UHGV virus genome: UHGV-0179428 | Length of the DNA stretch: 64,000 nucleotides | Direction: 5' to 3' (one strand) | From: a virus | Part shown: positions 33,228-38,711 of the stretch, one piece after another | Layout of the letters: each line of letters begins with the position of its first letter | How positions within the stretch are numbered: position 1 is the stretch's first letter | The notes under the pieces: model-generated | Databases searched by the model: none | The model's input: the letters and a program-made list of their open reading frames with translations, nothing else | Told to the model about the DNA's origin: nothing | Program-made: the position numbers and the translations under genes

Positions 33228-33623
33228 ATGGCGATCAGTGTTAAAAATGTACGTGACCGAATCACCAACGTAGAGAACCAAATGGCAACTGGCCCACGTG
33301 TTGATCCGCAAGTTGCGTCGAAAGCACATAATGCCGCCGACACTTTTTCGGGTTGGACGCCAAGTCGGTTAGACTGCGGGGGGAGTTGCAGCTGGACGTG
33401 CTCAAACGGTTGTACGCATGGCTGTACGAGTTGTTCGGGCACCTGTACGTCAGTGTGTGTAGGTAGCTGCTCCTCTGCGTGCGGTAACCAGTGTACTGGA
33501 TGTAGTTCAACGTGTTCCGGTGGCTGCTCAGGTTGCAGTGGGACCTGTGGGGGTGCTTGCTCGGGCCGTTGTTCTACGGGTTGTTCTGGTGCTTGCTCTG
33601 GTGGCTGTTCTGGCCCAACCTAA
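33228..33623 (+). CDS. Cys-rich (C-x3-C)n protein 1, candidate rSAM substrate / precursor
   Basis: ORF track 33225-33623; ATG at 33228 after AAGGA; about 60-aa N-terminal region then about 70 aa of C-x3-C repeats with S/G/T spacers starting at LDCGGSCSWTCS. Confidence 0.75.
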   Translation: MAISVKNVRDRITNVENQMATGPRVDPQVASKAHNAADTFSGWTPSRLDCGGSCSWTCSNGCTHGCTSCSGTCTSVCVGSCSSACGNQCTGCSSTCSGGCSGCSGTCGGACSGRCSTGCSGACSGGCSGPT

Positions 33624-34030
33624 GAGGTGAAAAATGGCAATTGGATTACCTGCGCTACAAGCGCGGCTAAATAACATTGACAACACTGCATTGAAGAATA
33701 CGGGTGCAGTACAAAACTATATTCGTGGGAAAGCGACGAACAACGCAGACTTATTCGGTGGGCAAGCTCGCAACCACTATGACTGTGGTGGGAGCTGTAG
33801 CTGGACCTGTTCGAGCTGTTCTGGTGGTTGTACAGGGAACGCATCAGGCGGCTGTGGTTCTTCCTGTTCTGCAAACTGTGTATCAGGTTGTAGTGCAGGC
33901 TGTAGTGGATGTTCGAATACCTGTTCTGGTGGCTGTTCAGGAAGCTGTACGGGGAGTTGTTCTAACTCGTGTGTAGGAAACTGTTCTGCAGGCTGCTCAG
34001 GTAGTTGTTCTGGTGGGTGTTCTGGGAGGT
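33390..34030 (+). repeat. low-complexity TGY/AGC/GGN codon repeats encoding (C-x3-C)n
   Basis: Visible periodic Cys codons every fourth codon across two adjacent genes. Confidence 0.7.
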
Positions 34031-34032
34031 AA
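33634..34032 (+). CDS. Cys-rich (C-x3-C)n protein 2, candidate rSAM substrate / precursor
   Basis: ORF track; AAGAGGTGAAAA-ATG; same architecture, core begins YDCGGSCSWTCSS. Confidence 0.75.
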   Translation: MAIGLPALQARLNNIDNTALKNTGAVQNYIRGKATNNADLFGGQARNHYDCGGSCSWTCSSCSGGCTGNASGGCGSSCSANCVSGCSAGCSGCSNTCSGGCSGSCTGSCSNSCVGNCSAGCSGSCSGGCSGR

Positions 34033-34034
34033 TT

Positions 34035-36223: not shown

Positions 36224-37529
36224 ATTCCCTAAGCAGTTAACGTATCAGATCGTAACCAACCTTTCGTGTAACCTGGACTGCGAATATTGTTACGAACGTA
36301 AGTACCCGCGTAACAACAAAGCGGCTGACATTGTTGATTTCTTACACGCCTGTTTTGAACGTGATAAAAACGAACCGAATGTTGAAGTTATTATCGACAT
36401 TATCGGTGGTGAACCGTTCATGCAGCCTAAACTGCTGTTGGCTGCGTTTGAAACCGCTGAGCAGTTGTGTAAAGAACACAACCGACCGTTTATGTTTAGT
36501 ATCTCCACGAACGGAACGCTGTTAGATCGTCCGTTGAACCGTGAGATTGTAGAACGTTGGAAAGATAAACTTTCGGTTGGGGTTTCGATTGATGGCTTAC
36601 CTGAATCCCATGACCGTTATCGTATCTTCACAACAACACGCCAGGGTTCTTACGAAGCCGCAGTACGTGGCTATAACTACTTAAAAGAGGTTGGCATTGC
36701 AGAGCTCGGCGTAAAAGCAACCTTTACGTTAGAAACGCTGCCGTTCTATGCTGCGGGGATGAAGTCATTAATTGACATTACTGGCGGTGGGACAATTTCT
36801 GGAAACGTAACTTTCGAAGACGTTATGCCACGTAGCATGGCGACGTCAATCGCTTTACAGATGATGGATGTGATAGATTACTGGGTTGAGAAAGGATTAC
36901 ACACCAACCCACGTAATATCCTATCGCATATCATTCCAGAAGGGTTGGATTTCGACACGATTTGGGAACCGAACTGGCGTGACCAGTTACTGTATAATGA
37001 CACCGTACGGTTGAACCCGGAACGCTTACGTCCGTTCTGTGGGACGTTAACGCACATGACGTGCTTAGGGTTTGACCGTAAGATCTTTGGCTGTAACCGC
37101 TTTATGTCAACGGTAACGTCGCGTTCTGCGGTGTTTGAGTTGGTAGGTCGGGAATTCGTCAGTCTGGACAACGGTAAATTGTTAGAAGAGATTCAAACGC
37201 AATATACCAACTACCCAGAGACCTGTTTAGGTTGTCCGATGAAACACGCTTGTGGTAGCTGCGCAGCGGCTTCTTACGAGAACGGGGAAGGAACGTTAGA
37301 AGACCGTAAAGCGTATCACGCTGAACGACGTCAGTGTGGCTGGACGACAGCGAAACTGATGGTGGCGGAATACTGGAAACAGAAGATGGGTACGACGTCA
37401 GCAAAAGCGTTCCACGACACGAGTATGTGTTATTGCCCACGCTGTGTTCGTGAACGTGCCCAAAAGGAAAAATTATTAAGAGAAGCCAAAGATGAAACCA
37501 ATTCTGATCAACAATATTACGAAGCGTAG
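36207..37529 (+). CDS. radical SAM enzyme 2 with SPASM-like C-terminal Cys-rich domain
   Basis: ORF track; CNLDCEYC, GGEPF, C-terminal CLGCPMKHACGSC plus further Cys including CYCPRC; 17-nt overlap with upstream rSAM gene. Confidence 0.8.
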   Translation: MSQVNEFPKQLTYQIVTNLSCNLDCEYCYERKYPRNNKAADIVDFLHACFERDKNEPNVEVIIDIIGGEPFMQPKLLLAAFETAEQLCKEHNRPFMFSISTNGTLLDRPLNREIVERWKDKLSVGVSIDGLPESHDRYRIFTTTRQGSYEAAVRGYNYLKEVGIAELGVKATFTLETLPFYAAGMKSLIDITGGGTISGNVTFEDVMPRSMATSIALQMMDVIDYWVEKGLHTNPRNILSHIIPEGLDFDTIWEPNWRDQLLYNDTVRLNPERLRPFCGTLTHMTCLGFDRKIFGCNRFMSTVTSRSAVFELVGREFVSLDNGKLLEEIQTQYTNYPETCLGCPMKHACGSCAAASYENGEGTLEDRKAYHAERRQCGWTTAKLMVAEYWKQKMGTTSAKAFHDTSMCYCPRCVRERAQKEKLLREAKDETNSDQQYYEA

Positions 37530-38064
37530 AATTCGACTTCTGGATAAGTTTCTGGAAAACAGTAAGCTATTTGGTTGTTATGTGGTGATTAACGGTGAAG
37601 ATTTTACCGATGACGTAAAACGCTTGCTGATTCGTCACGGTGTGACTGTAATCATCCCAATGTACTGCACCGAACTTACTGACCTGTCGGTCGCGGAAAT
37701 TGAAAAACGTAACCCAGGGTTTGAAGAACGGGTATTGGATTTCCCACGTCACAAAATTGCGTTTCTACGCCGCTCTTTAAGCGAACCCAGCGCAGAATCT
37801 ATCACTGTGTTGGCATTGTCCTTCCCCGGCATTACTATCTTCGCAACACGTAACCCGAACTCACCGATTGATGGGTTTTACGATGAGCGGGAGAAATTTA
37901 ATACCGTGATTTTTCCTGAGCTAACGCCAGAAGAATGCCAGGGTATCCGTATCGATTGGGAATCGGACTTCGACACAAGATTCCGTCATATCGATTTTGA
38001 ACTGTTAATCGAATTAGGGTTGATTAAAGGAGACGATGAATGTCTGCTACTGGTGAAGGCTTAA
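37492..38064 (+). CDS. hypothetical protein in rSAM cluster
   Basis: ORF track; overlaps 3' end of rSAM 2. Confidence 0.6.
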   Translation: MKPILINNITKRRIRLLDKFLENSKLFGCYVVINGEDFTDDVKRLLIRHGVTVIIPMYCTELTDLSVAEIEKRNPGFEERVLDFPRHKIAFLRRSLSEPSAESITVLALSFPGITIFATRNPNSPIDGFYDEREKFNTVIFPELTPEECQGIRIDWESDFDTRFRHIDFELLIELGLIKGDDECLLLVKA

Positions 38065-38711
38065 CGAAAGAAGAAATCCGTCGCCGTTATTTTGCGCATG
38101 ATTTACCGATTGACCGTCATGGTAACTACATGGAGAAAATCGGTAGCGAAGATCACGGCCGTACAGGGTTTTGTGCGTTACTGCACTATAAGCTGATTGA
38201 TGGGATGTCTGATCGCGAAGCATTGGAACAAATGCGTAACTACGACATGTCTGAAATCGAAGCACGGTTTACGCTACAGAAAGCGAAAGACTTTGTTAAC
38301 GACACGTTGGGAATCGACCTGGAAGAAATTCGTACAGGTTTACGTTCCACGGTGCGGTACATCTTTACCGATGTTCAGAAAATTCTAAGCGCTCTGGAAT
38401 TCCGTTATCAGGATGCACGCTATGCTGAGATTCAGGTAGGTGATTTCACTTTCCAGGCAGATGAGAAGTCACAGGTAGCATTGAGTCGTTATATCCAGTC
38501 AGAAACTGCGCCAGCGTATTGGTTAACGGCTAACAACACCCGTATCGAACCGTTTACGTTAGAACAGTGCAAGACGTTGCTGGCAGCAATCGTTGAGCGT
38601 GATCAAAGACTACATCACGCAATGTCTGAGCAGAAAAGAGAAGTCAGGGCTTGGGCTGAAGCACGTGATTACGATTCGATAAAAGCGTTTGCGTTAGAGC
38701 AAGGGCTGTAA
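38040..38711 (+). CDS. hypothetical protein in rSAM cluster
   Basis: ORF track; AAAGGAG RBS; followed by strong bidirectional terminator. Confidence 0.7.
   Translation: MSATGEGLTKEEIRRRYFAHDLPIDRHGNYMEKIGSEDHGRTGFCALLHYKLIDGMSDREALEQMRNYDMSEIEARFTLQKAKDFVNDTLGIDLEEIRTGLRSTVRYIFTDVQKILSALEFRYQDARYAEIQVGDFTFQADEKSQVALSRYIQSETAPAYWLTANNTRIEPFTLEQCKTLLAAIVERDQRLHHAMSEQKREVRAWAEARDYDSIKAFALEQGL

Follow-up and report, generated by a model that had tools for sequence, protein, structure and literature searches.

Eight closely packed genes on the + strand of the virus genome UHGV-0179428 encode what we judge, with fair probability, to be a maturation cassette for phage tail fibres. They lie at positions 33228-38711 of the 64,000-nucleotide stretch of this genome that we analysed (hereafter the window). 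The genes encode three cysteine-repeat proteins (C1, C2 and C3), an accessory protein (U299), two radical S-adenosylmethionine (radical-SAM) enzymes (RS1 and RS2) and two further proteins (U190 and U223). The same kit is found in many unrelated phages, where the Cys repeat is often fused to a fibre, so the cassette most likely alters part of the fibre chemically and does not make a free peptide antibiotic.

There is also a broader proposition, on which we find ourselves evenly divided. It holds that radical-SAM enzymes cross-link a domain with a cysteine at every fourth residue in phage tail fibres, and that this is widespread in jumbo phages, P2-like and lambda-like prophages and abundant gut phages. 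No earlier case would then be on record of a virion structural protein that is modified after translation by a radical-SAM enzyme, and the families TIGR04114 and TIGR04115 would then largely describe a host-recognition device of phages, not a bacteriocin pathway.

The window belongs to an SPN3US-like jumbo phage: it is related to the Salmonella jumbo phage SPN3US (~72% nucleotide identity), and the RS2 protein is 81-83% identical. The gene order large fibre, 400-aa fibre, C1, C2, C3, U299, RS1, RS2, U190, U223 is common to SPN3US, the Erwinia phages pEa_SNUABM_29, Asesino, Machina, Kwan and Phobos, and Cronobacter phage CR5. C1-C3 are placed 1.1-3 kb upstream of the radical-SAM genes in one operon, and RS1, RS2, U190 and U223 overlap start-to-stop by 17-38 nt each.

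The Cys-repeat proteins

The architecture of the three proteins is simple. C1 is built from an N-terminal region of ~50 aa, the junction DCGGSCSWTCS and a (C-[ST]-G-x)n tail. The junction of C2 is KATNNADLFGGQARNHYDCGGSCSWTCS. C3 shares the N-terminal region and the junction but contains only 4 Cys. Past residue 50 both C1 and C2 are nearly all C-x3-C with an occasional C-x2-C. Their spacers are made of Gly, Ser and Thr, with Ala, Asn and Val in a few places, and the consensus of the repeat reads C-[S/T]-G-[S/G/T], with a Cys spacing of 4 in 83% of intervals and of 3 in 15%. The repeat tails of C1 and C2 are free of Asp and Glu, and the repeat regions of all three proteins of Lys and Arg. A first-pass annotation, made from the DNA letters, had placed all of the open reading frames (ORFs) of the operon correctly on the + strand; its estimate of about 27 Cys in each of the long ORFs was too high, the counts being 21 for C1 and 20 for C2.

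Such a composition invites the question of whether these are genes at all. Runs of the form (C-x2-3)>=5 occur exactly twice in the window, in C1 and in C2, and never arose when the dinucleotides of the whole window were shuffled 100 times or those of the local region 300 times. Across seven related phages from about five genera, every Cys is kept (21/21 in C1, 20/20 in C2). Between the window and these phages the proportion of synonymous differences (pS) is 0.70-0.86, i.e. saturated, against 0.10-0.36 for nonsynonymous ones (pN). Since all Cys are kept, synonymous sites are saturated and pN is low, the frame of C1 and C2 is under strong purifying selection. For C3 the start is the GTG at 34035 with GGAGG upstream, in agreement with its orthologues, which are 76-90% identical (SPN3US, pEa_SNUABM_29, Machina, Asesino), again with saturated synonymous sites. 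An origin of the repeats by chance or in a wrong frame is ruled out by the shuffles, the Cys conservation and pN < pS, and by all these measures C1, C2 and C3 are real genes.

Known families say little about them. No Pfam family matches C1-C3, and PHROGs places all three in phrog_6085, which has no assigned function. The repeat family TIGR04114 (cut-off 20 bits) is just reached by C2 (20.4 bits), with C1 (14.4) and C3 (12.4) below. Some relatives of C2 carry a precomputed PF27846 assignment. More telling is the similarity to fibres. Residues 5-129 of C1 align to residues 156-298, the C-terminal half, of a Deferribacter fibre (locus L010, E 1.5e-6), and the C2 junction aligns to the same fibre and to a metagenomic one (L013). 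A junction of the form N[AS]xxLxGQxxxYYxCxxGCSWTCS, in which the Trp is invariant, recurs in the protein database in numerous small proteins that resemble fibres, and fibre-fused homologues carry the C2 type of this motif.

The radical-SAM enzymes

The first-pass annotation's two adjacent radical-SAM genes are confirmed. Both proteins pass PF04055 (53 bits for RS1 and 57 for RS2, cut-off 29.5) and both have a CxxxCxxC motif (C28-x3-C32-x2-C35 in RS1, C21-x3-C25-x2-C28 in RS2) and a GGEP motif. RS2 starts directly with the radical-SAM core and has no N-terminal recognition element (RRE domain). In its C-terminal region eight Cys are conserved (C278, C286, C296, C340, C343, C349, C352 and C377); aligned with distant relatives, C21, C25 and C28 are invariant and the eight C-terminal Cys are SPASM-like. 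The SPASM-like region that had been proposed for RS2 agrees with its cysteines. It is not borne out by Pfam, whose SPASM profile is silent at E<=1, and the auxiliary spacing is CX2CX5CX2C instead of CX2CX5CX3C. Likewise, in the segment CLGCPMKHACGSC...CYCPRC that was quoted for this region, CLGCPMKHACGSC is conserved and CYCPRC is confined to close relatives. RS1 has no SPASM domain; it ends in a twitch-like region with three Cys (C245-x2-C248...C274). Its orthologues retain the CxxxCxxC, the GGEP and the three C-terminal Cys, and they accompany RS2 orthologues in unrelated phages.

The top NCBIfam match of RS2 is PapB (NF047865, 116.8 bits, below the cut-off of 340), followed by TIGR04115 at 114.7 bits, where residues 10-371 align to profile positions 3-345 of 359. 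Both profiles are of SPASM maturases, and the similarity to each runs along the full length of RS2. In the PDB the best match of RS2 is CteB (5wgg, 5.8e-14), with anSME also near, and the best match of RS1 is SkfB (6efn, 3.1e-6). PHROGs gives both enzymes the generic label 'radical SAM'. From these relationships RS1 and RS2 are predicted to be peptide or protein maturases. We rejected MoaA, QueE, NrdG and viperin as identities for the two enzymes, the scores being far below the cut-offs (e.g. MoaA 43.8 bits versus 284), and methylthiotransferases were rejected as well. The non-peptide families that the first-pass annotation had named as examples that would count against its proposal (NrdG, QueE, methylthiotransferases) are therefore not what these enzymes are.

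As a side note for curators, in the Salmonella phages SPFM6, 7, 8, 9, 14, 15 and 20, whose genomes are near-identical, the RS2 orthologue is matched in short patches, which suggests frameshifts or assembly errors in these records.

The cassette in unrelated phages

Outside the SPN3US group RS2 has homologues with 30-40% identity over ~88% of its length. Each of the genomic contexts that we opened is a phage tail module with a Cys-repeat protein; in that of a 279-kb phage (L026) this is a 3-Cys ORF, and a neighbour is helicase-like. An all-against-all BLAST comparison identified four conserved parts: first a protein with the Cys repeat, whether a fibre or not, then one that resembles U299, and then RS1-like and RS2-like enzymes. 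In 10 of the 10 lineages with this four-part cassette that were examined, the Cys-repeat ORF is fused to a fibre, lies directly after a fibre or (L026) lies directly upstream of the U299-like gene. Fusion of the repeat to a fibre is seen in six lineages or more.

Two prophages are good examples of this. In a P2-like prophage of Campylobacter pinnipediorum, a 384-aa fibre with an N-terminal PF12571 domain (1.8e-40) has the CXXX end ...GCNGCSGSCSGSCSSGCTACSGCSGSCSG. The gene order is baseplate J, gpI, fibre, a 250-aa protein, RS2-like, RS1-like, DUF1353 and sheath. In a lambda-like prophage of Deferribacter abyssi, a 302-aa fibre with HxHDxRYYTExE repeats follows the GpJ tip protein, and has a C-terminus (KATNADQLGGQAGSYYRCSDCSWTCS, also given as KATNADQLGGQAGSYYRCSDCSWTCSSSC...) with 29 Cys. 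It is followed by a 250-aa protein and then by the RS1-like and RS2-like genes. The fused repeat is also found in the metagenomic locus L013, in a 213-kb phage (L024, a 568-aa fibre), in a 140-kb contig (L175) and in L176. In the last of these the fibre (1866-3392) ends in GGCSDCSDCSDYCSDDHC and lies between two radical-SAM genes, with further fibres nearby. Its repeat is a C-S-D variant with acidic residues, and from this sequence it may be nearer to the Cys-Asp chemistry of PapB.

In two alphaproteobacterial, prophage-like loci (L174 and L177) a six-frame scan revealed an uncalled ORF of ~75 aa, MSRFF[TS]RPNQQG[GA]GC(CXXX)n, exactly between a T7-like fibre gene and the U299-like gene. A separate observation concerns the L026 neighbour, a 909-aa helicase-like ORF (4133-6862). 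It seems to be interrupted after a GSGKA Walker A motif, and the insert, which ends ...VTHN, looks like an intein.

The accessory proteins are harder to place. The predicted fold of U299 is confident but novel, with no recognisable fold relative, and its family is rare (45 clusters in 1.84 billion representatives). From its position and conservation, our guess is that U299 is a substrate-presenting or fibre-assembly factor. U190 is limited to the SPN3US-like clade and has no Pfam, NCBIfam or PDB match. U223 is specific to the same clade, with a weak match to the tail-fibre family phrog_1807 (2.4e-4) and no PDB relatives. The PHROG families of U299, U190 and U223 (Table 1) carry no assigned function. 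The accessory proteins of related cassettes did not match any Pfam or NCBIfam family.

A survey of viral contigs and a second type of cassette

A scan of IMG/VR found 211 loci with RS2 relatives, and the counts that follow are for the best 80 of these. A (C-x2-3)>=5 ORF is present on the enzyme strand in 77 of the 80 viral loci and on the opposite strand in none. It usually ends ~1 kb 5' of the enzyme, and has up to 64 Cys in 367 aa. A fibre-like ORF (similar to one of five query fibres) is on the enzyme strand in 60/80, and baseplate wedge and tail-fibre PHROGs are found upstream of and around the viral loci.

Most of these loci are gut-phage contigs with a second type of cassette. The gut-phage type has a Cys-repeat protein with an N-terminal domain of ~110 aa and a single radical-SAM enzyme, with accessory proteins of ~200 and 94 aa in place of U299 and RS1. 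Four enzymes on viral contigs (L051, L059, L042 and L068) pass the TIGR04115 cut-off with 384-470 bits, three others (L027, L008 and L085) fall below it, and L010, L011 and L024, which share a sister clade with RS2, score 144-157 bits. Two of the four bona fide TIGR04115 loci (L068 and L059) adjoin baseplate or fibre genes with clear PHROG matches. In L059, phrog_2163, the family of the gp167-like fibre in the window, is directly upstream of the radical-SAM gene and the CXXX gene is just after it. In L051 a 937-aa protein (3976-6789) has an N-terminal region resembling a carbohydrate-binding module, a central CXXX region of ~190 aa and then a W[KR]N[YA]DGTGTGTGPF array. This array looks like a beta-propeller, with the Cys repeat as a putative internal stalk.

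A scan of genomes with the generic pattern CNL[DR]CxYC returned mostly other SPASM families among the matches listed, and therefore can be used only as a negative control. Among these matches, a Cys-run ORF is present in 1 of the 67 loci where the tblastn match does not span most of RS2, the one positive being a short 8.6-kb contig, and in 4 of the 13 with near-full-length matches. Some relatives are found in bacteria. In one metagenome-assembled genome (L142) a single 66-aa CXXX peptide (10517-10717) lies near a full-length RS2/TIGR04115 relative, in another (L100) there are three such peptides, described below, and one CXXX protein (P0184) has a signal peptide of the twin-arginine translocation (TAT) type. 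Peptide-like or secreted versions of the system therefore exist too.

Virion proteomics and gaps in annotation

The published proteome of SPN3US contains 86 proteins, and includes gp167, gp168-171, gp172 and gp173 as non-head virion proteins (PMC5694885, Supplementary Table 1). The counterparts of U223, U190, RS2, RS1 and U299 (gp161-gp165) are not in the virion list (PMC5694885), which fits enzymes and factors for assembly or maturation. C1-C3 are also missing from this list, and their absence carries no information, because the searched database did not contain them and their repeats lack Lys and Arg. The annotation of SPN3US misses all three genes, so that virion proteomics could not detect them: gp166/gp100 is called out of frame over C2, and there is nothing for C1 or C3. 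The correct ORFs are given in Table 1. Their predicted N-terminal tryptic peptides include LNTIDANALK and ATNNADLFAGQGR.

This is not an isolated case. In the records of pEa_SNUABM_29 and CR5 opposite-strand ORFs are annotated over the Cys-rich genes, and Machina is the only one of the seven records examined where C1, C2 and C3 are all correctly annotated. In our extracted loci the misannotated stretches are 4950-5979 of L001 (SPN3US, NC_027402), 5050-5769 of L002, 4380-4592 of L004 and 4224-4985 of L003.

A proposed mechanism

We propose that C1, C2 and C3 would be small fibre subunits, with a short helical N-terminus, a conserved junction and a C-[S/T]-G-x tail. In other phages this junction (N-A-x-x-L/F-x-G-Q...Y-x-C-x-G-x-C-S-W-T-C-S) and the repeat together are the C-terminal or central domain of a fibre itself. 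The probable partner of C1-C3 is the gp167-like fibre encoded just upstream. After translation, in the reducing cytoplasm, the repeat would be modified by RS2, which is PapB/TIGR04115-like, and by RS1, a shorter twitch-like paralogue. U299, as a conserved non-virion accessory, may assist, and U190 and U223 probably do so too.

The likeliest chemistry would be a thioether that ties the sulfur of a Cys to a carbon atom in a nearby Ser, Thr, Gly or Cys, made by 5'-deoxyadenosyl radical chemistry; this is suggested by PapB (PMC9413430) and, through homology, by CteB and SkfB. The product would be a covalently stapled rod or tip, resistant to proteases and redox changes. More speculatively, consecutive small rings could give the stapled rod, RS1 and RS2 could install different links, and the rationale may be that cross-links are fixed in the reducing cytoplasm before release.

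Alternative explanations

Several points weigh against a fibre-maturation cassette. The data establish the genes, the enzyme families, the conserved cassette and its fusion or proximity to fibres, whereas the place of C1-C3 in the virion, their role as substrates and the bond that is made are inferred, the thioether chemistry being proposed by analogy. RS2 is far under the TIGR04115 cut-off (114.7 versus 350 bits). The AlphaFold 2 (AF2) model of C2 has a predicted local distance difference test (pLDDT) score of 30-40 over the repeat, i.e. no confident fold. In L026 the ORF beside the enzymes has 97 aa and ends in RGCESCAMGCHGPQ, with just three C-terminal Cys, and the gene upstream of the cassette is helicase-like and not a fibre. 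The CXXX ORF of L174 and L177 has a leader of only 13 aa, and so the look of a classical precursor of a peptide that ribosomes make and that is modified after translation (RiPP). The three tandem CXXX peptides of L100 (12140-12885; 53-60 aa), near a full-length RS2/TIGR04115 relative, are also RiPP-like. Finally, profile searches of U299, U190 and U223, and of the accessory proteins that related cassettes encode, found no RRE/PqqD-like domain.

Could the cassette make a phage-encoded RiPP instead? The N-terminal ~50 aa would then be leaders, the modified cores would be freed at lysis to serve in antibacterial, metal-binding or signalling roles, and the proximity to fibres would be incidental. 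We consider this unlikely, although the annotated role of the enzyme family is that of a peptide maturase (TIGR04115, PapB), the enzymes are not in the virion, and the bacterial peptides of 53-66 aa (L100, L142), the short leader in L174/L177 and the TAT-like signal of P0184 are what it would predict. It has difficulty with a repeat that is a covalent part of the fibre in six or more lineages and occupies the middle of a 937-aa protein, and with a place in fibre modules that is kept across myo-, sipho- and jumbo phages. Furthermore, the supposed leader bears the typical fibre junction motif. Genes expected in a RiPP cluster are also missing: Pfam, NCBIfam and PHROG profile searches of the operon found no protease (a leader protease included), exporter (transporter) or immunity gene, and the absent PqqD-like domain counts here too. 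The first-pass annotation had offered a phage-made peptide and a modified structural protein side by side; the comparison across phages favours the latter.

The repeat could also be a metal-binding or disulfide-bonded fibre domain, with the radical-SAM enzymes acting elsewhere, on another residue type in gp167 or gp168 or on a small molecule. Metal ions are common in fibre tips, as in T4 gp37 and gp12. A repeat that AF2 cannot fold by itself fits a metal- or oligomer-dependent fold, and L026 has the enzymes with just a 3-Cys neighbour. Against this, the co-occurrence of enzyme and repeat is almost perfect, and the repeat is absent beside other SPASM families (1/67 of the control loci listed). 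In addition, the closest characterised relatives of RS2 all use a substrate Cys as thioether donor (PMC9413430). We regard this explanation as improbable.

A still less probable reading is that the CXXX domain is a module for assembly only, e.g. an intramolecular chaperone or trimerisation clamp, which is modified, serves while the fibre folds, and is afterwards cut off or does not enter the mature virion. Removable C-terminal chaperone domains are found in other fibres (endosialidase, T5 pb1), and the repeat is at this very site in the fused fibres. The cassette of the P2-like prophage also fills the usual slot of a fibre-assembly gene. That said, there is no S74-type peptidase motif or Pfam match, the repeat is internal in L051, and arrays with as many as 64 Cys look oversized for a clamp that is thrown away. 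The published view for SPN3US-like phages, that the radical-SAM genes are auxiliary metabolic genes which boost host metabolism (PMC6614189), has for it that statement and the Prokka labels in record LR535921, where automatic annotation names the enzymes MoaA and AlbA; it is very improbable, and unsupported because MoaA, QueE, NrdG and viperin score far below their cut-offs, while the similarity to peptide maturases is full-length and the genes are in an obligate operon with Cys-repeat genes inside a fibre module.

Layout of the locus and neighbouring genes

The features of the locus are given in Table 1. The first-pass annotation had placed the operon between terminators. The downstream one is strong. 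Upstream there is a hairpin that was read by eye, and on which the terminator scan was silent because its loop is longer than 8 nt.

Table 1. Features of the cassette and its surroundings, with the corresponding Cys-repeat ORFs of SPN3US
Feature	Sequence	Position	Strand	Description
gp167-like tail fibre protein	window	31955-33160	+	401 aa; phrog_2163, 8.2e-103; directly 5' of C1
Hairpin	window	33170-33215 (about)	+	AGGAGGAACT...AGTCCTCC and T-run between fibre gene and C1
C1	window	33228-33623	+	131 aa, 21 Cys, 17 C-x3-C; phrog_6085, 1.5e-40
C2	window	33634-34032	+	132 aa, 20 Cys, 16 C-x3-C; paralogue of C1; phrog_6085; TIGR04114
C3	window	34035-34241	+	68 aa, 4 Cys; short paralogue; phrog_6085, 2.3e-24
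U299	window	34391-35278	+	295 aa; phrog_8030
RS1	window	35300-36223	+	307 aa, radical-SAM; PF04055; phrog_1802
RS2	window	36207-37529	+	440 aa, predicted radical-SAM/SPASM-type maturase; PF04055; phrog_1802; matches to PapB and TIGR04115
U190	window	37492-38064	+	phrog_7988; start overlaps RS2 stop
U223	window	38040-38711	+	DUF4376 protein, last gene of operon; PF14301, 5e-11; phrog_8169
Intrinsic terminator	window	38734-38764	both	bidirectional, ends operon; 12-13 bp stem, T-runs on both strands
DUF7941 trio	window	38791-40528	-	three tandem paralogues, 176-180 aa
Lipoprotein-type ORF	window	40660-41151	+	163 aa
ORF	window	41267-41782
DUF1353 protein	window	41760-42434	-	~3 kb from cassette
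C1 of SPN3US	NC_027402	143828-144220	complement
C2 of SPN3US	NC_027402	143413-143817	complement
C3 of SPN3US	NC_027402	143191-143397	complement

Some neighbours of the operon deserve a short description. The three tandem paralogues beyond the terminator all match DUF7941 and all end in ELDGFT. By synteny they correspond to gp160 of SPN3US, a head protein that is reported to be very abundant (>300 copies). At this site there is one gene copy in SPN3US, against three in the window and in pEa_SNUABM_29. Between these paralogues and the ORF at 41267-41782 (by position, its equivalent in Phobos bears the annotation peptidase M15A) lies an ORF with a lipoprotein-type signal (...LVGVFSLAGC) and no Pfam match. 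The DUF1353 protein is labelled 'tail assembly chaperone' in the RefSeq record of SPN3US. In the Campylobacter P2-like prophage a DUF1353 gene (L011, 10068-10433) lies directly after the radical-SAM pair. DUF1353 may be another recurrent partner of the cassette, or these genes may merely share membership of a tail module.

Implications

If a fibre-maturation system is correct, then radical chemistry of the RiPP type is used to build virus particles, and a cross-linked fibre of extracellular grade is made in a reducing cytoplasm. Genome mining would need to take CXXX/radical-SAM clusters as phage fibres and not as antibiotics. The modification would be a new factor in how phages adsorb and how stable they are, and the repeat would be a natural scaffold with up to 64 stapled repeats.

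Another use of these results is that they correct how a model jumbo phage is annotated. SPN3US and several of its relatives have three conserved genes that their records omit or call in a wrong frame, and through this gap a decade of proteomics has been blind to C1-C3. SPN3US offers genetics, amber mutants and existing mass spectrometry data, so the question is directly testable.

Comparison with known systems

The closest described system is in NCBIfam/TIGRFAM, where tandem CXXX repeats rich in Ser, Gly and Thr (the targets TIGR04114 and TIGR04117) stand beside a SPASM radical-SAM enzyme (the peptide maturase TIGR04115). With C2 at the cut-off of TIGR04114 and RS2 aligned end to end with TIGR04115, an in-silico bacterial equivalent already exists. 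This corrects the first-pass annotation, whose author was not aware of a described equivalent, as does the fact that PHROGs already clusters these proteins. The TIGR04115 family has been described in silico only, as a peptide system, and unlike it the type found in the window adds a second radical-SAM enzyme (RS1) and U299. In the open-access literature of PMC and bioRxiv, a scope that makes for a weak negative, we found no publication on a TIGR04115 product or its link to phage fibres, nor on CXXX-repeat or radical-SAM systems in such fibres, and the phage-fibre context of these clusters appears to be undescribed. As far as this literature shows, three things are new: that the system is widespread in the tail-fibre modules of phages, that the window has a distinct two-enzyme variant and that the substrates are unannotated in a model phage.

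PapB and its substrate PapA (freyrasin) are the nearest characterised pair. PapB is the top NCBIfam match of RS2, it also has no N-terminal RRE, and its substrate has Cys-x3 motifs. It makes one small thioether ring per repeated Cys-x3 motif, which joins the Cys sulfur to Asp at its beta-carbon or to Glu at its gamma-carbon (PMC9413430). As both acidic residues are absent from the tails of C1 and C2, the acceptor there cannot be of the PapB type. PapA also differs in being a short peptide of the secreted type with six motifs, and not a domain of 20-64 Cys fused to a fibre.

Among solved structures the best relatives are CteB of the SCIFF system (5wgg) for RS2 and SkfB (6efn) for RS1, both of which form thioethers and act on Cys-rich substrates. 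Their auxiliary Fe-S clusters are bound by a SPASM domain in CteB and a twitch domain in SkfB. However, the alignments are significant only over the radical-SAM core, the substrates are peptides of ~45 aa, and CteB has an N-terminal RRE that RS2 does not.

A last comparison is with QhpD, whose family TIGR03906 is among the matches of RS2 (61 bits versus a cut-off of 453) and whose substrate and context differ. QhpD, which matures quinohemoprotein amine dehydrogenase, may serve as a precedent: this SPASM enzyme installs thioether cross-links from Cys in a protein subunit which is kept in a larger assembly and is not a free RiPP.

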